64,000 nucleotides of DNA from an uncultured Lachnospiraceae bacterium (GCA_964498965.1 CAZCJU010000002.1:3798-67797); one strand, 5' to 3'; positions 7,236 to 24,143 are shown, counted from the stretch's first letter. The notes: generated by a model not told the origin, from the sequence alone. Translations and numbers: made by a program.

Positions 7236-7310
7236 GGCCTGTTGGTCAAGTGGCTAAGACTCCGCCCTCTCACGGCGGCGACAGGGGTTCGACTCCCCTA
7301 CAGGTCACCA
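7236..7310 (+). tRNA. tRNA-Glu, anticodon CUC, with encoded CCA
   Basis: The hand-folded cloverleaf has an acceptor stem ggcctgt/acaggtc (one G-U pair) and a 3-bp D stem gtc/gac. The anticodon stem is ccgcc/ggcgg with loop c-t-CTC-a-c. The T arm is agggg-ttcgact-cccct, followed by discriminator a and cca. The anticodon and T arms closely resemble E. coli tRNA-Glu. Confidence 0.85.
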
Positions 7311-12979: not shown

Positions 12980-13152
12980 TCGTTTTCACAATTCTCGATT
13001 TATCCGTTCTTATTTTTTCAAGCTTCGCCGTGTCAACATCTATTGTAATACTGTGCGGATTTTTTTGTTATTTCGTCAAAGCTATTGAAAAACGGAGCGA
13101 CCTATGATAAAATAACGTGAAATAAATTGCAAATACGAGAAAGGTGAGCAAA

Positions 13153-14397
13153 ATGAAACACCCGGAAAAAAAAGAAGCGAAACGATACGACAGCACTTGT
13201 CGCTGTGCGGAATTCACGGACACAGTCTATAGCGGCAAAAACAGAACGAGAGCCGAATTGAGTGAAAAGCTTCGTGCCGCACAGCAAAGCTTTTTACCTC
13301 CTCCGCACATGCTCAAGGCGTTTACGGGCGAACTGCACGGACACACAACACTTTCGGACGGATGTGTTGATATAGATACGTATTTTACGAACCTGCGTGA
13401 TAAGGCACGGCTCGATTTTGCCGCAATCACGGATCACGACCACGGCGGTGTCGGTGGCGACGAGCTTTGGAACGGCAAATGGGAAATTATAAAGAAAAAG
13501 GTCAAAGAATATCGTCGTGACGGCGAATTCGTTACGATACTCGCATACGAACGTGATTCCTATCCGTATTATTCCAATATGGTGCTTTATTTTGAAAATG
13601 ACGACGGCGAGCCGATACGGGGCGTGCGGGACGGAGAGATAACATGCGATGAATTGAAACGGATGCTTACACGTACCGATGTTGTTGCGGCGTGCCACGA
13701 CACGTATCGCTTGTCGTGTTATGTTGATTTTCAGACACTCGACGACACCCTGTTTTTGCCGTACATCGAAGTGATATCCAGAGGAGATGCCGCCGAGTAT
13801 ATGGGCAATCCCGCATGGCGTGAGAGGGATTGCTGTGAGGGCGGTTTTTGGCGTGACGCACTCGACAGAGGTGCAAAAATAGGTGTCATAGGCGGCAGTG
13901 ATGACCACGTAGGCATGGGCGGCAGAGTCGATCGTAGGTTAGGATATCCCGCAATGTATCCCGGTGTCACGGGCGTATGGGCAGTGGAAAACACACACAA
14001 GGCGATATTCGAGGCCTTGAAAGCGAAAAGGACATATGCGTATATGCTCGGCAATTACGACGGAGAAATGCACGGACGCATAGAGATAGAATTCAGAATA
14101 AACGGCTATTGGATGGGCAGTGAGCTTAAACTCGGCGACAACGAGGAATTGATCATATATTTTAAAGTCGGCTCGGACGTGCCGATAAAGGAGGTAACGC
14201 TTGTTAAAAACTGCCGTGACCGTATAAAATGGTACGGCAAGAATGAGGACACGGTTCTCGATTACAAACAGGAACGAGAAACGGACAGCTATTACCTGCG
14301 TGTCGAGCTTGAGGACGGCCGCTTCGGATGGACGAGTCCGATCTGGACAGAACGAGAAAGAAAAAGCAAAATCAATGAATGTGTATCGGCTTTTTAA
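13153..14397 (+). CDS. PHP-domain (polymerase/histidinol-phosphatase-like) metallohydrolase family protein
   Basis: The track ORF begins at a GTG (13144). The ATG at 13153 sits 7 nt after AAAGGTGA, so I use it. Motifs include GELHGHTTLSDG (H-x-H), AAITDHDHG and GGSDDH. Confidence 0.55.
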   Translation: MKHPEKKEAKRYDSTCRCAEFTDTVYSGKNRTRAELSEKLRAAQQSFLPPPHMLKAFTGELHGHTTLSDGCVDIDTYFTNLRDKARLDFAAITDHDHGGVGGDELWNGKWEIIKKKVKEYRRDGEFVTILAYERDSYPYYSNMVLYFENDDGEPIRGVRDGEITCDELKRMLTRTDVVAACHDTYRLSCYVDFQTLDDTLFLPYIEVISRGDAAEYMGNPAWRERDCCEGGFWRDALDRGAKIGVIGGSDDHVGMGGRVDRRLGYPAMYPGVTGVWAVENTHKAIFEALKAKRTYAYMLGNYDGEMHGRIEIEFRINGYWMGSELKLGDNEELIIYFKVGSDVPIKEVTLVKNCRDRIKWYGKNEDTVLDYKQERETDSYYLRVELEDGRFGWTSPIWTERERKSKINECVSAF

Positions 14398-14702: not shown

Positions 14703-16841
14703 ATGATGGATTTGTGGTTTTTACTGCCTATAGGTGCGTTGGCGGCGTTGGCGTTTGCCGCATATAATGCATATAAGGTCAAAAAATGCGATTGCGGAAA
14801 CGAAACTGTCAAGAGCCTTTCGGATTCGATCAAGGCGGGTGCAAACGCCTACTTGAAGCGTCAGTATAAGACCGTCGTAATATTTTTCGGAATCGTGTTC
14901 GTGCTGCTTTTCGCTCTTTCGCAGATCAAACCGGGCGAAAACGGTCAGGCACTGATCTCGAGGTTTACCCCGTTCGCTTTTCTGACGGGTGGATTTTTCT
15001 CCGGACTTTCCGGATTCTTGGGAATGAAGATCGCAACAAGTGCGAATTGCAGGACGACAACAGCCGCATCGCAAAGCCTTAATAGGGGACTGCGTGTTGC
15101 GTTTTCGGCAGGCTCCGTAATGGGCTTCGTTGTGGTCGGACTCGGTCTGCTCGATGTTTCTATGTGGTATCTCGCACTCAGATTTTTGTTCGGAATCGAG
15201 GATATGCGTGAGCTTACGACCAATATGATAACGTTCGGTATCGGTGCTTCCACAATGGCGCTTTTTGCAAGAGTCGGCGGAGGAATATTCACTAAAGCCG
15301 CCGATGTCGGTGCCGATCTCGTCGGGAAAGTCGAAGCGGGAATACCTGAGGACGATGCGAGAAACCCCGCCACAATTGCGGATAACGTCGGCGATAACGT
15401 CGGCGACGTTGCGGGCATGGGAGCGGATCTTTACGAATCGTACGTCGGTTCTATAATTTCCGCATTTTCGCTTGCCGTTACGGCGGGCTTCGGTGAACCG
15501 TCAAAAGCAATATTGCCGATGCTACTTGCCGTACTCGGAATCGTTTGCTCGATTGTGGGAACGTTTTTTGTTCGCTGCGGCGATTCTATCGAACAGAAAA
15601 AACTCCTTTCCGCTTTGAGAAGGGGAACATATGCGGCAGCGATTTTGTTTGCCGCTTGCTCGCTTCCGCTGATATATTCGGTCTTGGGCAAGGGAAGCCT
15701 TGGAGTTTACGGCGCCGTTCTTTCCGGACTTGTTGCCGGAGTCCTTATAGGATATTTCACAGAGTACTTTACCTCGGATACATATAAACCTACACAAAAA
15801 CTCGCACAAACCTCGAAAACAGGCTCGGCCACTATCATAATCAGCGGTTTTTCGCTCGGTATGAAAAGTGTGATAGCTCCTATCGTGATCATCTCGATCT
15901 CCGTTCTGGCTTCGTTCTTCCTTGCCGGCTTCGGTCATAACGATGAGGGCAAGATCGTTCTCGATGCCGCAAAAGGACTTTTCGGAATTTCGATATCGGC
16001 TGTCGGTATGCTTTCAACGCTCGGAATAACGCTTGCGACCGATGCGTATGGACCGATAGCGGATAATGCTGGCGGTATCGCTCAAATGGCGGGACTTGAC
16101 GAAACGGTGAGAGAACGCACGGACGCACTCGATTCGCTCGGCAATACGACCGCCGCGACCGGAAAAGGCTTTGCGATAGGCTCTGCGGCTCTTACTGCGC
16201 TGTCATTGATCGTCGCATTTAAGGAACAGCTGAAATATTTCGGATTTGAAAGCTTTAAGCTCGATATAACCGACCCCATCGTTCTTGTCGGCGTGTTTAT
16301 AGGAGCGATGCTCCCGTTCGTTTTTGCCGCAATGACAATGGATTCGGTAGGTCAAGCAGCTCAAAGCATAGTTGTGGAGGTTCGCCGTCAATTCAGAGAA
16401 ATGACGGGGATTATGGAGGGAAAAAACAAGCCGGACTATAAACGTTGCGTGGATATTTGCACGAAAGCGTCGCTCGGCAAAATGGTCGCACCTTCCGTTT
16501 GTGCGGTTGTTGTTCCCGTCGCAGTCGGTGTTCTGCTCGGTCCGGGCGGCGTTTCGGGCATGCTGTGCGGTGCTTTGGTTACGGGATTTTTGCTTGCCGT
16601 TTTGATGTCGAATGCCGGAGGAGCATGGGATAACGCAAAAAAGTATATCGAAAGCGGAAAACTCGGCGGAAAGGGAAGTGATGCCCATAAAGCGGCGGTT
16701 GTCGGAGATACCGTCGGCGATCCGTTCAAGGATACGAGCGGTCCGTCAATCAATATTTTGATAAAATTGCTTTCGATAGTTTCGATAGTTTTCGCATATA
16801 TAATCGCGAATACCAATTTTATAGGCAGATTCTTTATGTAA
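14703..16841 (+). CDS. hppA: membrane-integral, ion-translocating pyrophosphatase (K+-dependent subfamily)
   Basis: The 712-aa polytopic protein has an AGGAGG RBS and the signatures GGGIFTKAADVGADLVGKVE, DNVGDNVGD and GDTVGDPFKDT. The motif GNTTAATGKG has Ala rather than Lys after GNTT, which in this family marks K+-dependent (H+ or Na+) enzymes. Confidence 0.9.
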   Translation: MMDLWFLLPIGALAALAFAAYNAYKVKKCDCGNETVKSLSDSIKAGANAYLKRQYKTVVIFFGIVFVLLFALSQIKPGENGQALISRFTPFAFLTGGFFSGLSGFLGMKIATSANCRTTTAASQSLNRGLRVAFSAGSVMGFVVVGLGLLDVSMWYLALRFLFGIEDMRELTTNMITFGIGASTMALFARVGGGIFTKAADVGADLVGKVEAGIPEDDARNPATIADNVGDNVGDVAGMGADLYESYVGSIISAFSLAVTAGFGEPSKAILPMLLAVLGIVCSIVGTFFVRCGDSIEQKKLLSALRRGTYAAAILFAACSLPLIYSVLGKGSLGVYGAVLSGLVAGVLIGYFTEYFTSDTYKPTQKLAQTSKTGSATIIISGFSLGMKSVIAPIVIISISVLASFFLAGFGHNDEGKIVLDAAKGLFGISISAVGMLSTLGITLATDAYGPIADNAGGIAQMAGLDETVRERTDALDSLGNTTAATGKGFAIGSAALTALSLIVAFKEQLKYFGFESFKLDITDPIVLVGVFIGAMLPFVFAAMTMDSVGQAAQSIVVEVRRQFREMTGIMEGKNKPDYKRCVDICTKASLGKMVAPSVCAVVVPVAVGVLLGPGGVSGMLCGALVTGFLLAVLMSNAGGAWDNAKKYIESGKLGGKGSDAHKAAVVGDTVGDPFKDTSGPSINILIKLLSIVSIVFAYIIANTNFIGRFFM

Positions 16842-16885
16842 AAAAGTGCGTTTCGGAGTTTTTCCGAAACGCACTTTTTTATTTT
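16842..16885. terminator. bidirectional rho-independent terminator between convergent genes
   Basis: The stem is agtgcgtttcgga / tccgaaacgcact (13 bp), flanked by an A-run on the left and a T-run on the right. It sits between the hppA stop (16841) and the stop of the 566-aa gene (16879). Confidence 0.7.
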
Positions 16886-18579
16886 CTTTTTGCGAAAAAA
16901 TCACATATCGCCATGTCACCGCCGAAGCCTATGAAGCTTATCAAGAATATCATCAGCCATGGCATTTGCGAAAGTGCTTCGGGTATATCGCCTACATCGA
17001 AAAGCAGTGCGGTTACCGAGGAAACTATAACTACAACCATAAGCATTATGAGAATTGCAAATAATGCTCCGCAAAACAAAAATTCCGTTATAAATGTCAA
17101 ACGGGAGAACGGCTCGGCCGAAAAAACATCGGTAAATTCTTTGCGTTCCTCCTTGCTTAAGCTTAAACATTCGGCTTTTTTCGTTGCGATAAGTACCGAC
17201 AGATCAACTTTTTGATTGTTACATTCAAATGACTTAAACAGCCGTCTGCCGCCCACATTGAAGCAGCATGAATAAATATCGCATATATTCTCGCCTTTTT
17301 TTAACAGTGCCGTGCCGCACAGAAACGTGATAACCAATTCGTTTCCGATAACTTTTTCAAGACATTCCACTCTGTATTCGACGTTTTTTTCCGTACCGAT
17401 AAAATAACTCATACCGTAGCTTTCGACAAGACGAATTTTACCGATCTTTCCTTTCTTGTAAAACGTCGGATATTCGCCGCTGTAGCCGAGAGCGTGGAAA
17501 CTTTTTTCCACATTTGCTCGCAATTCGTTAAACTCCGTGCAGTGCAATGCTTCCGACTTGCGGATATATTCCGCTTGCGAGTTTGTTATCAAATCGTATA
17601 ATTCACGCCACATTTCCTCGCATTTGCTTTTGTTCAGCTCTTCGTCAAGTCTGTAAAAACTCATATATGTGTCCGAAGCGTTATTGAGCTTTTTTGCGGC
17701 AATGTCGAAAAGAGGCGATAAATGCGATAAGCCGTATTTTGCGGAGTAACACTTTAGCAGACCGAAATCGATTTCGTCCGAATGAAATTTGTTTTCCCGA
17801 ACAAAAGGGTGCAAAAGGGTAAGCTCCCGTAAAAGCGGCAGAATTTCCGCTTCCCTATCGTTACAGCTGTTTCTTCTTTCTATGTTGTCGAGAATATCAT
17901 AAGCAAGATACGAAAGCATATGCCAAGGCGATTGTACGAAGTCGGTAAATTCAACACGGAAAAACGTCTTTATGCATTTTGCGGTGTCAAAGCATATATT
18001 CAGCAGTGTCGAATCGGAGGTCGCCTCGCATTCGCCCGTGCATTCCAATATATAACGGTCACGCTCTTTCAAAATACGGGCATCGGCAAAGGACAGGTAA
18101 TCGAAGCCGGCAATATCGATATCACGCGTTAAATGCAGAACAAGCGTTTCTTCATAAGAATCAAAATCATCTGATAAAAGATGTAGCTCTCCGTCGCTTT
18201 TTGTGATACATTCACAGCACCCGGATTCCTCGAAGAACCGATAAAAGACGTTTGCGACATCGGGTGAAAAGTCGGATACGGAGCGTTCGAAGCGTGTTCT
18301 GCTTTCTTCGGCTTCGGCAAGCACGTACTCGTTACAGTAGGACAAAAATTCGAAGAATTCATTGTTGCTTTTCGAATCGGCAGTGTATTCCGAAGGCTTG
18401 TTCTCGGAATCAAAGTAACGCAGATATTCTTTCCTTGTATGCTTGCGTATCTTTTTTTGCGTTTTTTCATCAGCCGTTATCGGATCGATGTCAAATGTCG
18501 TTTTTGCCGATGAATACAAGAAAGCATAGTATTCCATACTGTCTTTATCCAAATCGGAAACGTCAAAAGAACGATACAT
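16879..18579 (-). CDS. hypothetical protein with a large cytoplasmic domain and two C-terminal TM helices
   Basis: The 566-aa ORF starts in a TAATG overlap with the upstream gene's stop codon. I recognise no family motif. Cys clusters are present (ESGCCECITK, ECTGECEATS, IYSCCFNVGG). Two hydrophobic helices lie at the C-terminus (...FLFCGALFAILIMLMVVVIVSSVTALLF... and MPWLMIFLISFIGFGG). Confidence 0.6.
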   Translation of the reverse strand: MYRSFDVSDLDKDSMEYYAFLYSSAKTTFDIDPITADEKTQKKIRKHTRKEYLRYFDSENKPSEYTADSKSNNEFFEFLSYCNEYVLAEAEESRTRFERSVSDFSPDVANVFYRFFEESGCCECITKSDGELHLLSDDFDSYEETLVLHLTRDIDIAGFDYLSFADARILKERDRYILECTGECEATSDSTLLNICFDTAKCIKTFFRVEFTDFVQSPWHMLSYLAYDILDNIERRNSCNDREAEILPLLRELTLLHPFVRENKFHSDEIDFGLLKCYSAKYGLSHLSPLFDIAAKKLNNASDTYMSFYRLDEELNKSKCEEMWRELYDLITNSQAEYIRKSEALHCTEFNELRANVEKSFHALGYSGEYPTFYKKGKIGKIRLVESYGMSYFIGTEKNVEYRVECLEKVIGNELVITFLCGTALLKKGENICDIYSCCFNVGGRRLFKSFECNNQKVDLSVLIATKKAECLSLSKEERKEFTDVFSAEPFSRLTFITEFLFCGALFAILIMLMVVVIVSSVTALLFDVGDIPEALSQMPWLMIFLISFIGFGGDMAICDFFAKRK

Positions 18580-19259
18580 TATTTTTCCTCGATGTATTCC
18601 GAACCGCCCATGCGAAAGCCAGCCGTCTTGCTTACCGGTAATGAAAACGTTACAGCTCCCGCTTCCGAGTTCGGACCGGCATTGTTTAATATCGCTTTCA
18701 TTATCTCGGCCTTGTTATCCGTATTTGCGACGATGAGTATTATCTCTTTTTCGTCGGCAATGGATACGTTGTAGAATTTTTCGGCGTTTTTCCCGCCCGT
18801 ACCCTTTGCGTGAATAACGGTTCCGCCCCTTGCACCGGCGGAGCGTGCCGCATCCATGACCGTGTCAGTGTGTCCTTCATTGGCAATTGCGATTATAAGC
18901 TCGTAATCGTAACTTAATTCGGGCATTTTCTTTTCCTCATTTACTCCTTTATTTAAATACATAAGAGTCTTGCGTCCCCCGACGCTCTTTATAGGCAGTG
19001 CGACGGTTATTCCGTTGCCGGGAACGTCTATGTAAAGACGCGAACGTTGATACGCTATCAGTTTTTCCGTGTCCGCATCCCCCGCAATCGTCATGAAGAT
19101 CCTTCTTTCCCTCGATTCGATGCCGAGCAGATCGAGTGTCCGCTTACTCGCCGTTCCGTGTCCGAATACAAGTGATGAAATGTTCAGCTGAAGCTGCCTG
19201 CATATGTCGGTCATTATTGCGGAACCCTCGGGATTAATTATTGATATTACGTAATTCAT
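18579..19259 (-). CDS. tandem PII-like (GlnB-fold) signal-transduction protein
   Basis: I prefer the ATG at 19257-19259 (MNYVISIINPEG...), which lies 5 nt after AGGAGG. The protein has two ~105-aa halves with a beta-alpha-beta PII-like pattern. The second half (YELIIAIANEGHTDTVMDAARSAGARGGTVIHAKGTGG...EKEIILIVANTDNKAEIMKAI) looks like the PII-like proteins usually found next to DUF1538 genes. Confidence 0.6.
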   Translation of the reverse strand: MNYVISIINPEGSAIMTDICRQLQLNISSLVFGHGTASKRTLDLLGIESRERRIFMTIAGDADTEKLIAYQRSRLYIDVPGNGITVALPIKSVGGRKTLMYLNKGVNEEKKMPELSYDYELIIAIANEGHTDTVMDAARSAGARGGTVIHAKGTGGKNAEKFYNVSIADEKEIILIVANTDNKAEIMKAILNNAGPNSEAGAVTFSLPVSKTAGFRMGGSEYIEEK

Positions 19260-19274
19260 TGCTTCCTCCTGCAA

Positions 19275-20786
19275 TCAATTCCAAAGCTCTATTACGTCCT
19301 CGCCCTCAAGAGCATCGTACGTATCGCTTGCGTGCGACTTCTTCCTTGTGTAGATGAATCCGAGCAACTGAATGGATATGAGCGGCATCATGGCAACCAT
19401 GGCAACAAGACCGAACGAATCCGTTAAAATGTTGCCGCCCAAGGCATCGCACGCACCCATCATAAATTGCAGCATGAACGTGGCTGTCATCGGACCCGAC
19501 GCAACTCCGCCCGAGTCGAATGCGATTGCGGTAAATATATCCGGAACGAAAAACGAAAGAATGAGTGCTATTAAATATCCGGGAACGATAAACCACATTA
19601 TCGATATCCCCGTAATTACTCGAAGCATGGATAAGCCCATTGCCGACGATATGGCGATCGAAAGAGCAATCGTTATCGCTTTTCCCGAAATCGCTCCGGC
19701 ACTGACCTCTTCTATCTGCTTTTTGAGAACGTGTACGGCAGGCTCGGCAGATATGATGAACCAACCAATGAGCATCGACAGAGGGATAAGTATGTACTTC
19801 GTGTTTCCCTCGGCGAGCTTTGAGCCGAGAACCGTACCGAGAGCCGAAAAGCCCACGTTTACACCTGTCAAAAAGAGAACCAATCCTATGTAAGTGTAAA
19901 GAATTCCGAGAAGTATCTTAAATACCGATTTCTTCGGTAATTTAAACGAGAAAAATTGGAATATGAGAAATATTACCGCAATGGGGGAAAGTGATATTGC
20001 GATCTCGCCCATGTACTCGGGAAGTGCCGATAAATAAGACCTTCCGATTTCAACGGTGCTGTTCCATGTACTGGGCAATTCAAGCACCGCATTCGCATCG
20101 CCGCTGTAGAAAAATCCGAGTACCAAAACGGCTAAAATAGGTCCGATCGAGCAAAGTGCCACAAGACCGAAGCTGTCCGCTTCCGCTTTTTTGTCGCTTC
20201 GTATGTTGGCAACACCGACGCCGAGAGCGAGAATAAACGGAACTGTCATAGGTCCGGTGGTGACACCGCCCGCATCGAATGCGATGCTCAAAAAATCGGG
20301 ATCGGAAAAAGTCGCAAGCATGAATGCGAGTGCGTAAAAGAACATGAGCAGCCACCTGAGTCGCACTCCGTGTATGATCCTGAACATACATATGGCGAGA
20401 AACAGACCGACGCCTATGCTCACCGTCATTATCAAAACAAAACTGTCAATGTGCGGTACGGTGTCGGCAAGCACCTGCAGATCGGGTTCGGATACGGTGA
20501 TAGCAATACCGAGGATGAAGCTTACAAGTAAAATAAACCACATTCGTCTTGACTTTGTCAATGCTGTTCCGATCTTTGAACCGATCAACGTCATCGACAT
20601 ATCCGCACCGAGAGAAAAAAGTCCGATGCCGACAACGATCATTAATGAGCCGATAAGAAAAGAAAGCAAAAGGTCTGCGGAAATAGGTGCAACTGTCAAA
20701 CACAGCACCGTAACGGTCAAAATTATGGGTAAGACCGATATTGCGGATTCCCGCAACTTTTCGACAACGAGAGCCTTCTTTTTCAC
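19275..20786 (-). CDS. DUF1538 family membrane protein (two fused DUF1538 halves)
   Basis: The track ORF runs to a TTG at 20804. I prefer the GTG at 20784-20786 (MKKKALVVEKLRESAISVLPI...), which lies 7 nt after AAAGGA. The protein is polytopic and internally duplicated: compare ...AFDAGGVTTGPMTVPFILALGVGV... with ...AFDSGGVASGPMTATFMLQFMMG.... Confidence 0.65.
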   Translation of the reverse strand: MKKKALVVEKLRESAISVLPIILTVTVLCLTVAPISADLLLSFLIGSLMIVVGIGLFSLGADMSMTLIGSKIGTALTKSRRMWFILLVSFILGIAITVSEPDLQVLADTVPHIDSFVLIMTVSIGVGLFLAICMFRIIHGVRLRWLLMFFYALAFMLATFSDPDFLSIAFDAGGVTTGPMTVPFILALGVGVANIRSDKKAEADSFGLVALCSIGPILAVLVLGFFYSGDANAVLELPSTWNSTVEIGRSYLSALPEYMGEIAISLSPIAVIFLIFQFFSFKLPKKSVFKILLGILYTYIGLVLFLTGVNVGFSALGTVLGSKLAEGNTKYILIPLSMLIGWFIISAEPAVHVLKKQIEEVSAGAISGKAITIALSIAISSAMGLSMLRVITGISIMWFIVPGYLIALILSFFVPDIFTAIAFDSGGVASGPMTATFMLQFMMGACDALGGNILTDSFGLVAMVAMMPLISIQLLGFIYTRKKSHASDTYDALEGEDVIELWN

Positions 20787-21104
20787 CAAAACATCCTTTC
20801 TCAATATCCATCACTCCATTCGCCGTAAAAATCAATTAATTATATCATAAACGGATAACCGAATCGGTGAAAAATCGGTAAATTTTCTTCTGCGAAAAGA
20901 AAATTTATATAAATAATAATTGAAAAATCACGGTGCTTGTAAAATTTTCTTTAATATTTATCAAGATATAAGATTTATTAAATATTTTATGCTATTATAT
21001 AAAATCGGGTATGCGTATGCGTTGCCGAAACGCCGATGCTCATGCCGAAACATGATCGATACGATCGATGTGATCGATACGATTGAAATTTCAAGGAGAG
21101 TACG

Positions 21105-22937
21105 TTGAAAATTTACCGAATTGCCGCAGGCTTGCTGTGCCTGCTGCTCGTGCTGTCATCGTTTGCCTCTTGTGCCGGAAAAAACGCCGACACCTCGACC
21201 TTCGAAGCTGCGTCCGGCGGATCATCGACGAACGGCGACGAGAAGGAGAATGACAAAGACGACAAATACGTCAATGCCGAATTTTCTTTGAAAGGCGGCG
21301 TGTACGATTCAAAACAAATACTTGAATTGACACTGCCGAATAACGCTCCGAGCGGCTCGTACATAACCTATACCTTGAACGGTGACGAGCCGAAAGCCGA
21401 CGGAAAAAGGTATAATGACGGAATAACGGTATGCACTGCGGATTCGTCTGTTTGCGTAAGAGCCGTATGCTTTTCGGAGAATGGCGAGCAGCTCGGCAGG
21501 ATCAAGACCAATACCTATATCTATGCGAAAAAAAACAGATTCAATACGGCGATAGTATCTCTTGTAACGGATGAGAAAAATCTGTACGGGGATAGCGGAA
21601 TAATCTCGAATCCTCTATGCTCGGGCAAGGAGTGGGAGCGACCGTGTCACGTTGAAATGTTTACCTCGTCCGGCGAAGAAATGATATCACAAGATGCCGG
21701 TATAAGACTTTTCGGAGGCTCGTCGAGAACGCTTGCCCAAAAGTCGTTCAGACTTGTGGCAAGACGCGATGGCTATTACGATGAACTGAAATATAACGGA
21801 AACGGTTCGTTCGATTATCCGCTTTTCGAAAACAGATACGTAATGGCGGGAGAAAACAAGGGAAAGCTTCTTGAACGGTACGACAGAGTCATTTTGAGAA
21901 ACGGCGGAAACGATTCCATGCAACACCGCTCGGAGGATGGAACGTCGATGACGCTTTTGCGTGACGGTGTGGCGAATAATTATGCGTTGAAGTATGCCGA
22001 AGCCGTCCCCGCTCAGGCATCTCGATTCGTTGCGGTGTATCTCAACGGCGAGTATTACGGCATCTTGGATATGAAAGAGGATATAAACGACGATTATTTT
22101 TCGAATGTGTACGGCATAGAGAATAAAGACGAAGTGGCGATCATCAAATCGGAGCTTGACACATCGAGAAAATGCGAGCGACACAACAACGGCTCATATT
22201 GCAGATATTGCGGCACATGGTTTTATTACGAGCTTGATTGCGGTAATGACTCGGAGCTGGACGAATTCGAAGCGTTTTGTAAAAAGATAATAGGCTCAAA
22301 CGGGAACAACGACGAGGAGCTTTACCGTCAGCTGATGCAAGTGTTCGATATCGACAATTTGATACAGTATACCTTGCTTAATCTGTATATCTGTAATACG
22401 GACTGGGCACATAATAACCTGCGTATTTGGAGATATACGGGTCAAACCGATGCTTCGAATCCTTATAAGGACGGGCGTTGGAGGTTTACGACAAGAGATA
22501 TGGACTTTTCGTTCGGCAGATACGAAAGTATGTCCTTGCCCGAATTGTATACGCAGGCCGACACGGACACGTTTGCGTTCGTCCTCGGAGAATATAACGG
22601 AGATTACGGATACGGTAACGCTTACGGCGATCCGCTGTATCTGAAAGGAATATTGAATTTCTGCTTGAAAAACGGCGATTTCAAAACGAAATTCGAAGCT
22701 TATGCGAAAACCCTTATTTCCTCAAACGCCGTCGGCGACCTTACGACGCTGACAAAAGCGGCACGCAGTGAAATATCCGGAGAAATATCCTATCACATAA
22801 CACGGTGGTCCGATACGATCTCACGGTATATGAATAAGCGTGCTTGGGAAACAAGCTGTAGTCATCAGCTCGGCTGGATAAACGAGCGAAGCGAAAAATT
22901 CTCGGCATATCTCGAAAAATGCTTAAAAAAATATTGA
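21105..22937 (+). CDS. CotH kinase family lipoprotein with an N-terminal Fn3/chitobiase-C-like domain
   Basis: The 610-aa ORF starts at a TTG after AAGGAGAG. The lipoprotein signal is LLVLSSFASC-AGK. The CotH-like core includes SFRLVARRDGYY, ILRNGGNDS and RFVAVYLNGEYYGILDMKEDINDDYF. Confidence 0.7.
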   Translation: MKIYRIAAGLLCLLLVLSSFASCAGKNADTSTFEAASGGSSTNGDEKENDKDDKYVNAEFSLKGGVYDSKQILELTLPNNAPSGSYITYTLNGDEPKADGKRYNDGITVCTADSSVCVRAVCFSENGEQLGRIKTNTYIYAKKNRFNTAIVSLVTDEKNLYGDSGIISNPLCSGKEWERPCHVEMFTSSGEEMISQDAGIRLFGGSSRTLAQKSFRLVARRDGYYDELKYNGNGSFDYPLFENRYVMAGENKGKLLERYDRVILRNGGNDSMQHRSEDGTSMTLLRDGVANNYALKYAEAVPAQASRFVAVYLNGEYYGILDMKEDINDDYFSNVYGIENKDEVAIIKSELDTSRKCERHNNGSYCRYCGTWFYYELDCGNDSELDEFEAFCKKIIGSNGNNDEELYRQLMQVFDIDNLIQYTLLNLYICNTDWAHNNLRIWRYTGQTDASNPYKDGRWRFTTRDMDFSFGRYESMSLPELYTQADTDTFAFVLGEYNGDYGYGNAYGDPLYLKGILNFCLKNGDFKTKFEAYAKTLISSNAVGDLTTLTKAARSEISGEISYHITRWSDTISRYMNKRAWETSCSHQLGWINERSEKFSAYLEKCLKKY

Positions 22938-22952
22938 ATGGAGTGAATAAAA

Positions 22953-24143
22953 ATGGAAAGACTTATCGGAACGGTTTCAAGAGGCGTAAGAGCACCTATT
23001 ATCAGAGCGGGAGATGATATCGCACAGATAGTTGCGGACAGCGTACTTGCCGCCGCAAAGTCGGAGGACTTCGAGCTTCGCGATCGTGATGTTATAGCGG
23101 TAACGGAAGCGGTCGTGGCAAGAGCGCAAGGTAACTACGCAAGCGTAGAGCAGATCGGCAAGGATATCGCCGCAAAATTCCCCAAAGGTCATATCGGAGT
23201 TATTTTCCCGATACTCAGCCGTAACAGATTCGCCATTTGCCTTAAAGGCATCGCCATGGGTGCGAAAAAGATAACACTTATGCTCAGCTATCCCGCAGAC
23301 GAGGTAGGAAATCACCTTTTCGACGACGAGCTTCTCGACGAAAAGGACGTTGACCCCTACAGAGATGTTCTTGACGAGAAAAAATACAGAGAGCTGTTCG
23401 GCTATGTTAAACATCCCTTTACCGGCGTGGATTATGTCGAATATTATAAAGAGCTTATCGCATCGGTCGGATGTGAAGTAGAGGTTGTACTCGCAAACGA
23501 TTGCCGCACGATACTTAATTATACGAAAAACGTAATAAATTGTGATATCCATACACGTAAAATGACGGCACGCAGACTGAAAAAAGCGGGTGCCGAAACG
23601 GTCATGTCGCTCGACGAGATCATGACCGCCCCCGTTGACGGAAGCGGATATAACGAAAACTTCGGTCTGCTCGGCTCGAATAAGGCTACCGAAACCACGA
23701 TCAAGCTTTTCCCCAGAGATTGCAAGCCCGTAGTCGAAAAAATTCAAAAATTGGTAAATGAAGCGACGGGAAAGCACGTCGAGGTCATGGTGTACGGCGA
23801 CGGAGCGTTTAAGGACCCCGTGGGAAAAATTTGGGAACTTGCGGATCCCGTTGTATCCCCCGCTTATACCGACGGTCTTATCGGACAGCCTAATGAGGTG
23901 AAGCTGAAATATCTTGCCGATAATGATTTTGCACAGCTCTCGGGCGACGCTCTTAAGGAAGCTATATCCGAGTATATCAGAAATAAGGACGATAACCTCG
24001 TCGGAAAAATGGTATCTCAAGGCACAACGCCCAGACGTCTCACCGACCTCATAGGAAGCCTTTGCGATCTTACGTCGGGAAGCGGTGACAAGGGAACTCC
24101 TATCGTTTTGGTGCAGGGCTACTTCGACAACTACACAAAATAA
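22953..24143 (+). CDS. CofE/FbiB-like (F420-0:gamma-glutamyl ligase family) protein with a C-terminal extension
   Basis: The N-terminus of this 396-aa ORF matches the CofE-family pattern (...[18 protein letters not shown]...[21 protein letters not shown]). The protein is about 150 aa longer than archaeal CofE. This is a by-eye call only. Confidence 0.45.

Follow-up and report, generated by a model that had tools for sequence, protein, structure and literature searches.

The window studied here is a stretch of 64,000 nucleotides (nt) from an uncultured Lachnospiraceae bacterium (GCA_964498965.1 CAZCJU010000002.1:3798-67797; positions are counted from its first letter). It carries an operon of three minus-strand open reading frames, tightly packed head to tail, with an AT-rich promoter region at one end and a strong bidirectional terminator at the other. 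The first gene (19275–20804, minus strand) encodes a fused double-DUF1538 membrane protein of 509 amino acids (aa), a putative transporter. The second (18579–19259, minus strand) encodes a tandem PII-like protein, 226 aa from its ATG, which is a putative cytoplasmic sensor or regulator of that transporter. The third (16879–18579, minus strand) encodes a Cys-rich DUF3878-type protein of 566 aa. We found that the conserved unit is made up of two genes, DUF1538 and PII, and not three, and that this pairing spans phyla. The third gene was inserted recently, in one lineage, at the 3' end of the operon and is a passenger rather than a conserved component.

Conservation of the DUF1538-PII pair

We surveyed the gene neighborhoods of both the fused and the split forms of DUF1538. 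The fused-type survey used 80 loci from different GTDB species, each with a full-length fused DUF1538 protein 53–80% identical to the one in the window. A tandem PII gene lies directly downstream on the same strand in 77 of these 80 loci, which is 77 of 77 evaluable cases; the remaining three contigs stop at or inside the DUF1538 gene. For the split type, a metagenome scan with a two-sequence alignment yielded 80 loci, 62 of which had enough downstream sequence. In 60 of those 62, the second of two DUF1538 genes has just one single-domain PII gene (~110 aa) directly behind it. The two homologous 7-helix DUF1538 units were always both present in the surveyed loci, whether fused or as adjacent genes.

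The pairing persists in much more distant relatives. On Peptostreptococcales plasmids, Paraclostridium and Peptoclostridium keep it at 37–42% DUF1538 identity, and it is kept in locus L182, where the tandem PII is only 33% identical to that of the window. Alphaproteobacterial plasmids of Methylocystis and Chelativorans have two DUF1538 genes and then one gene for a 112–122-aa "P-II family nitrogen regulator." A PII gene adjacent to and co-oriented with the transporter gene is thus a conserved arrangement. The earlier note on this DNA, made from the sequence alone, had proposed a PII-partnered transport system of three genes. Its two-gene core holds up in the surveys, and its third member drops out.

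No third conserved neighbor was found, in that no other gene is common to more than 12 of the 80 fused-type loci. The other recurrent neighbors of these loci are housekeeping genes, and the pair occurs across very different neighborhoods as a self-contained unit. A MarR-family regulator is encoded immediately upstream on the same strand in 12 of the 80 fused-type loci (L018–L097), and a small HTH_26 protein just upstream in 7 of the 80. Both are absent from the window. Where they occur, they may control transcription of the pair locally.

Comparison of the two forms also bears on how the proteins arose. Both partners had been described as fusions of genes that are usually separate. For the DUF1538 protein, the split loci point to exactly that. 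The tandem PII has a different origin: because the split-gene clade has a single PII gene, the tandem form goes back, in the clades sampled, to duplication of a single partner gene and not to fusion of two neighbors. In 61 of 61 cases, the single PII of the split clade is nearer to the C-terminal than to the N-terminal unit of the tandem form.

Genes for cation ATPases, universal stress proteins (Usp) and CBS-domain proteins often lie within 4 kb of split-type loci (L106, L107, L121, L163, L170, L174 and others). After dereplication to 61 groups, 25 of which have more than 6 kb of sequence, a P2-type cation ATPase was found within 4 kb in 10 groups and a tandem Usp in 11. CBS-domain proteins were found in 7 of the 61.

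Architecture of the two proteins

Pfam DUF1538 (PF07556) matched the membrane protein twice, with 464 bits against a gathering cut-off of 22.6 (E = 5e-140), and the best stretch covers all profile positions (1–211 of 211). Aligned with each other over 225 aa, the N- and C-terminal halves show 28% identity (E = 4e-28). The family and the internal duplication had both been recognized in the earlier note. Fused DUF1538 proteins of about 500–540 aa are very common, forming at least 8000 clusters at 90% identity, all with "DUF1538 domain-containing protein" as their sole annotation.

Two NCBIfam models exist for characterized members of the family, UmpA (NF041627) and UmpB (NF041628). The window protein scored 164.6 bits against the UmpA equivalog cut-off of 490 and 130.6 bits against the UmpB cut-off of 500, and by this comparison we class it as a homolog of UmpA/UmpB, not an equivalog. 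Scores below the cut-offs mean that function cannot be transferred automatically and that a substrate has to be argued for.

The AlphaFold2 (AF2) model of the DUF1538 protein is all-helical, with a helix pattern that is alike in both halves (predicted local distance difference test, pLDDT, 78). A sequence search of the PDB with this protein gave no match. When the model was compared with the PDB by Foldseek, the best hits were VcINDY and a membrane pyrophosphatase (M-PPase), at E = 0.026 and a template modeling (TM) score of ~0.2, and we rejected them as non-significant.

The distribution of positive charge shows how the two halves are arranged in the membrane. Lysine and arginine residues (K+R) were counted per loop in one common alignment of 33 fused proteins and 46 split pairs. 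In the N-terminal half of the fused proteins, charge sits in the N-terminus and loops 2–3, 4–5 and 6–7 (mean K+R of 12.4 vs. 0.8 in the other loops). In the C-terminal half, it sits in the other loop set (1.6 vs. 6.6). The bias was opposite between units in 33 of 33 fusions and, comparing the first gene with the second, in 46 of 46 split pairs. Under the positive-inside rule, this pattern makes the two 7-helix units antiparallel and the fusion an inverted repeat of 14 helices whose N- and C-termini both lie in the cytoplasm. We found no mention of an opposite orientation of DUF1538 units in our literature search. SMR/EmrE-type, DUF606 and CrcB/Fluc proteins offer a parallel, with adjacent homologous genes of opposite K+R bias and fusions that form an inverted repeat, although they have 3–5 helices per unit compared with 7 in DUF1538. 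Our literature search did not find DUF1538 assigned to this antiparallel-pair class.

Three charged residues are invariant across split and fused DUF1538 proteins: one Glu in an EP motif, one Arg, and one Asp in an FDxGG motif. They correspond to E105/E353, R141/R394 and D176/D429 of the window protein. A second Asp, in a DSFG motif (D209/D461 in the window protein), is invariant only in the fused clade. The conserved acidic residues sit at helix breaks in both repeats.

The product of the second gene is a genuine tandem PII, since Pfam, hhalign, the AF2 pattern and Foldseek all agree. Pfam P-II (PF00543) matches residues 121–217 only (43.1 bits vs. a cut-off of 25, E = 5.8e-11). The N-terminal unit is missed by Pfam, yet a profile of the N-terminal 100 residues aligned with a profile of the C-terminal unit across 92 columns (hhalign 94%, E = 1.4e-7), as expected from the two PII-like halves previously proposed. 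Taken together, Pfam, hhalign and AF2 place a divergent N-terminal unit at residues 1–105 and the C-terminal unit at about 117–220. The AF2 model has the β-α-β-β-α-β pattern twice, and its low-confidence loops at 36–48 and 151–168 correspond to the T-loops. Foldseek matched this protein to GlnK1, GlnK2, plant PII and PstA (TM 0.56–0.75, normalized to target), and a sequence search of the PDB gave borderline PII matches. Two PII units in one chain imply an assembly unlike the canonical homotrimer, for example, three chains forming two trimers.

The tandem PII family comprises 5666 clusters at 90% identity and 2294 representatives at 50% identity, and most of the 150 best-scoring of these representatives are 220–240 aa long. 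Invariant residues in the T-loop regions are G35, T36, L45, G46, R53, G153, T154, G155, F162, S166, E170 and E172, and the divergent N-terminal unit therefore keeps invariant residues of its own. Some of the 50%-identity representatives (P0317, P0339, P0355, P0435) have extra sequence, either an N-terminus that resembles AbrB/SpoVT or long extensions at the C- or N-terminal end, and these may be real domain fusions or gene-call chimeras.

Transport function and PII control

In our literature search, the only functional study of DUF1538 that we found was that of UmpA and UmpB from Halomonas zhaodongensis, published in 2017 (PMC5484666). These proteins are a DUF1538 pair that requires co-expression and forms a hetero-dimer, and E. 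coli KNabc that expresses them gains pH-dependent Na+(Li+,K+)/H+ antiport (PMC5484666). The study predicts seven segments per subunit, does not discuss their orientation, and reports one R, two D and one E as the conserved charged residues of UmpA/UmpB homologs (PMC5484666). The active UmpAB clone carried no PII gene (PMC5484666), so the membrane pair works without one, and PII more likely regulates the pair than forms a structural part of it. The claim in the earlier note that the substrate of DUF1538 proteins was undefined is outdated by this antiporter and by the NCBIfam models for its subunits. A 2026 machine-learning study also places DUF1538 among the Pfam families predictive of optimal growth pH.

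The window protein resembles UmpAB in several respects. They belong to the same Pfam family, with two homologous 7-helix units that are needed together in UmpAB, and the split form has TAATG-type coupling between the units. The set of one R, two D and one E in the window protein and the fused clade equals the published count, and it is present in both halves of the window protein. The differences are that the window units are fused in one 509-aa chain, that the scores of 165 and 131 bits compare with cut-offs of 490 and 500, and that the UmpAB study mentions neither a PII partner nor an antiparallel orientation. The window protein most likely moves monovalent cations (Na+, K+ or Li+) against protons.

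The reading we favor, and consider probable if not by much, is that of a two-gene DUF1538-PII module in which a cation/H+ transporter has a dedicated PII partner and the third gene is a passenger. The membrane protein would be a single-chain version of a UmpA/UmpB-type pair, with 14 helices in antiparallel units. The tandem PII would be its dedicated cytoplasmic partner, translated from the same mRNA. By analogy with GlnK-AmtB and SbtB-SbtA, it would bind a small effector and dock via its conserved T-loop regions on the cytoplasmic face of the transporter, and the docked protein would open or block transport. In a single narrow lineage, the gene for the membrane-anchored DUF3878 protein has come to lie between PII and the terminator, and there it would be co-transcribed without being a general component. 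The sequence data establish the gene structure, the families, the tandem and inverted repeats, the conserved pairing and the insertion, and the substrate, the docking, the effector and the sense of the regulation are inferred.

That analogy, drawn in the earlier note, is the natural reading for a conserved DUF1538-PII pair. Like glnK and amtB, a PII-fold gene adjoins and is co-oriented with a membrane transport gene across phyla, and the window PII is modeled with the β-α-β-β-α-β fold and a flexible T-loop. In contrast to GlnK-AmtB, DUF1538 is unrelated to Amt, and the window PII has two units in one chain, a T-loop about six residues shorter than that of E. coli GlnB, and ATP/2-oxoglutarate contacts that are not conserved; docking is proposed by analogy. 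SbtB-SbtA is alike in that a PII-like protein is dedicated to, and expressed together with, a transporter of inverted-repeat architecture. DUF1538 has no sequence relation to SbtA, and an R-loop-type C-terminal extension is not evident in the window PII. SbtB binds adenine nucleotides, cAMP and cyclic di-AMP (c-di-AMP). The c-di-AMP-binding PstA/DarA proteins of Firmicutes have a PII-like fold as well (the Foldseek TM for PstA was 0.75, normalized to target). They differ in being single-domain and not linked to DUF1538, and Pfam puts the C-terminal half of the window protein in P-II proper. Our literature search found no description of the DUF1538-PII pairing and no effector assigned to the PII partner, which agrees with what the earlier note said of the effector.

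Several observations weigh against the favored reading. Each neighborhood survey is limited to a single clade, with an identity of at least 53% in the fused-type survey and of at least 55% in the split-type survey. The substrate is taken from one study, in a heterologous host, of proteins that are only distantly related. Confidence in the AF2 model of the tandem PII is moderate (pLDDT 62). Canonical PII proteins contact ATP and 2-oxoglutarate through R38, Q39, K58, K90, R101 and R103 (E. coli numbering). In alignments of borderline significance, to A. fulgidus GlnB-3 and within the family, R38, Q39, K90, R101 and R103 are replaced, and only the glycine-rich segments and the K58-equivalent (K171) are kept. 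Of the replaced residues, R38, K90, R101 and R103 are the basic ones that contact the phosphates of ATP. With them lost, there is no ground to presume canonical sensing of ATP/2-oxoglutarate, and PII may conceivably have a structural role without sensing. Finally, the overlap between the start of the third gene and the PII stop is kept as 1 or 4 nt in relatives of 67–69% identity, which leaves room for a local functional link of the third gene within the window lineage.

The strongest alternative is a PII-regulated transporter whose substrate is not a monovalent cation at all (bicarbonate, ammonium, another anion or a metabolite), and we regard it as possible, though on the unlikely side. The sole experimental datum for the family, cation/H+ antiport, would then have to be a side activity of UmpAB in a sensitive E. 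coli assay. The UmpA/UmpB equivalog scores far below threshold would allow this, no solved fold relative constrains the substrate, and we found no Na+, Li+ or c-di-AMP riboswitch upstream in the 31 loci tested. The two characterized PII-transporter pairs, moreover, carry ammonium and bicarbonate, not Na+ or K+. Speaking for a cation nonetheless are the neighbors of split-type loci, which are cation ATPases and stress proteins rather than carbon or nitrogen assimilation genes, and the family-conserved acidic residues at helix breaks in both repeats.

A more far-reaching proposal seems distinctly doubtful to us. In it, the fused inverted-repeat DUF1538 and the tandem PII would form a distinct and widespread class of effector-gated cation transporters in Clostridia. 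The PII, its canonical ATP/2-oxoglutarate site lost, would sense another signal (for example, c-di-AMP, another nucleotide messenger or an ion), its N-terminal unit would have a function of its own, and DUF3878 would have been recruited as an extra subunit in the window lineage.

We think it very unlikely that the membrane protein serves mainly as a transceptor, a sensor or anchor that sequesters the tandem PII, as AmtB sequesters GlnK, with the output being the action of PII on other cytoplasmic targets. Canonical PII proteins do have many targets, the divergent N-terminal unit with its own invariant residues could face a second partner, and some cluster representatives of the tandem PII have extra domains. 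Nevertheless, UmpAB transports by itself, and the pair moves self-contained through differing neighborhoods with no conserved third partner.

The third gene and the surroundings of the operon

The 566-aa protein scored below the gathering cut-off of Pfam DUF3878 (PF12994; 20.7 bits vs. 27, E = 2.8e-4). It has 46 homologs of about 560 aa, and 31 of the 31 aligned at full length match DUF3878, the best with E = 7.8e-14. We therefore place it, by family comparison, as a probable, divergent DUF3878 member and not the orphan without a recognizable family that it had been taken for. The soluble part is acidic and Cys-rich, and two C-terminal hydrophobic segments (492–533 and 540–562) are predicted to anchor it in the membrane. 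A PDB search with the protein gave chance-level matches only, and one with the family profile found nothing.

We conclude that this gene is an insertion because it is missing from related loci, because its homologs occur in unrelated contexts, and because of its low GC content. Homologs were found in 0 of the 80 fused-type loci, in a search whose positive control detects the gene wherever it is known to be present; this is the answer to the gene-neighborhood survey that the earlier note had suggested. The gene is absent from L018, which is 80% identical. Locus L016 has the same flanks as the window and lacks the gene, with the order F420-ligase-like and CotH genes, DUF1538 and PII, then a convergent membrane pyrophosphatase gene, a polysaccharide-synthesis gene and a gene for a SIS protein; the pyrophosphatase gene lies 70 nt after the PII gene. 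Four distant homologs (31–42% identity) are in four different neighborhoods, none with DUF1538 or PII. The GC content of the gene is 41.9%, compared with 47–50% for neighboring genes. The window arrangement was found only in the 67–69% identity relatives, which have the whole synteny in common with the window.

Two of the DUF3878 homologs have neighbors of a particular kind. One (L006, 8001–9704) comes directly after phage terminase, portal and capsid genes, and another (L003, 3013–4713) is the first in a line of genes, small and hypothetical, that lies close to DUF559 and HTH genes. These contexts hint at spread of the family by mobile elements. None of the three operon proteins had a match in PHROGs or PADLOC, leaving a phage or defense role for them unsupported.

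The junctions between the genes are as the earlier note described them. The DUF1538 gene stops with TGA at 19277–19275, and 15 nt separate it from the PII-like ATG at 19259. Within them, an AGGAGG ribosome-binding site was read directly from the sequence (19265–19270, minus strand), 5 nt upstream of that ATG. The start codon is fixed by the residues MNY, at which nearly all homologs begin. At 18579, the PII stop and the start of the 566-aa gene overlap by one base in TAATG, a translational coupling, and no terminator lies between the two genes. On the basis of these junctions, the three genes are probably co-transcribed in the window lineage. Least probable of all the explanations is that the three genes are one system, with the membrane-anchored 566-aa protein as a third subunit or accessory of a PII-gated transporter: the TAATG overlap, its retention in the 67–69% relatives, the lack of an intervening terminator and the predicted membrane anchor are set against absence from all 80 fused-type loci with working positive controls, from L016 with both flanks alike and from L018, against the unrelated contexts of the four distant homologs, and against the lower GC content.

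Downstream, a hairpin at 16838–16882 with a 20-bp stem (7 G-C pairs) and a 5-nt loop is preceded by an A-run and followed by a T-run, so it can act as an intrinsic terminator in both directions, as had been proposed. It is common to the operon and the convergent gene at 14703–16841, which it separates from each other. Upstream, the divergent intergenic region at 20805–21104 likely contains the operon promoter. Its AT-richness is clear (31% GC, with a core of 21.5%, vs. 45.5% for the window), and the best minus-strand sigma-70-like site is at 20873–20844, as a consensus hexamer match only. Sigma-70-like hexamers are no more numerous there than in shuffled sequence. Rfam searches detected neither riboswitches nor leaders ahead of the window operon, and none adjoining the module in 30 related loci, where the T-box and lysine riboswitch matches are those of other genes. 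The only Rfam gathering-level match in the whole 64-kb window is a single tRNA (7236–7307, plus strand).

The convergent gene (14703–16841, plus strand) encodes a 712-aa membrane pyrophosphatase (Pfam H_PPase, 890 bits). Its GNTTAA motif indicates the K+-dependent type. A membrane pyrophosphatase gene adjoins DUF1538-PII in L007–L011 and L016 (convergent) and in L012 (same strand), representing three lineages. We considered a functional link with the pair and downgraded it, as this adjacency occurs in 0 of the 80 species-representative loci. On the other side of the operon, there are two divergent neighbors (21105–24143, plus strand). One encodes a secreted CotH-kinase-like protein that has CHB_HEX_C and Fn3-associated domains, the other a protein like F420-0:gamma-glutamyl ligase. 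This gene pair is syntenic in L007 and L016. Farther away, a 417-aa protein (13144–14397, plus strand) has a marginal DUF3604 match (20.3 bits vs. a cut-off of 20.4).

The window copy is an ordinary member of a widespread, uncharacterized PII-plus-transporter variant, with nothing special about it beyond the passenger gene. PII proteins are among the most widespread signaling proteins, and to our knowledge the mechanism is understood for only two of their partnerships with transporters, those with AmtB and SbtA. Pairs of DUF1538 and PII are abundant and occur in gut Clostridia and Proteobacteria, and we found neither a solved structure nor a known effector for them. The parallel changes in the two partners (split genes with a single PII, a fused inverted repeat with a tandem PII) are useful for experimental design, as is the clear antiparallel topology. 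If the pair is indeed a PII-gated cation/proton exchanger, it would link PII signaling to ion and pH homeostasis and provide a third, structurally different model of PII-controlled transport.

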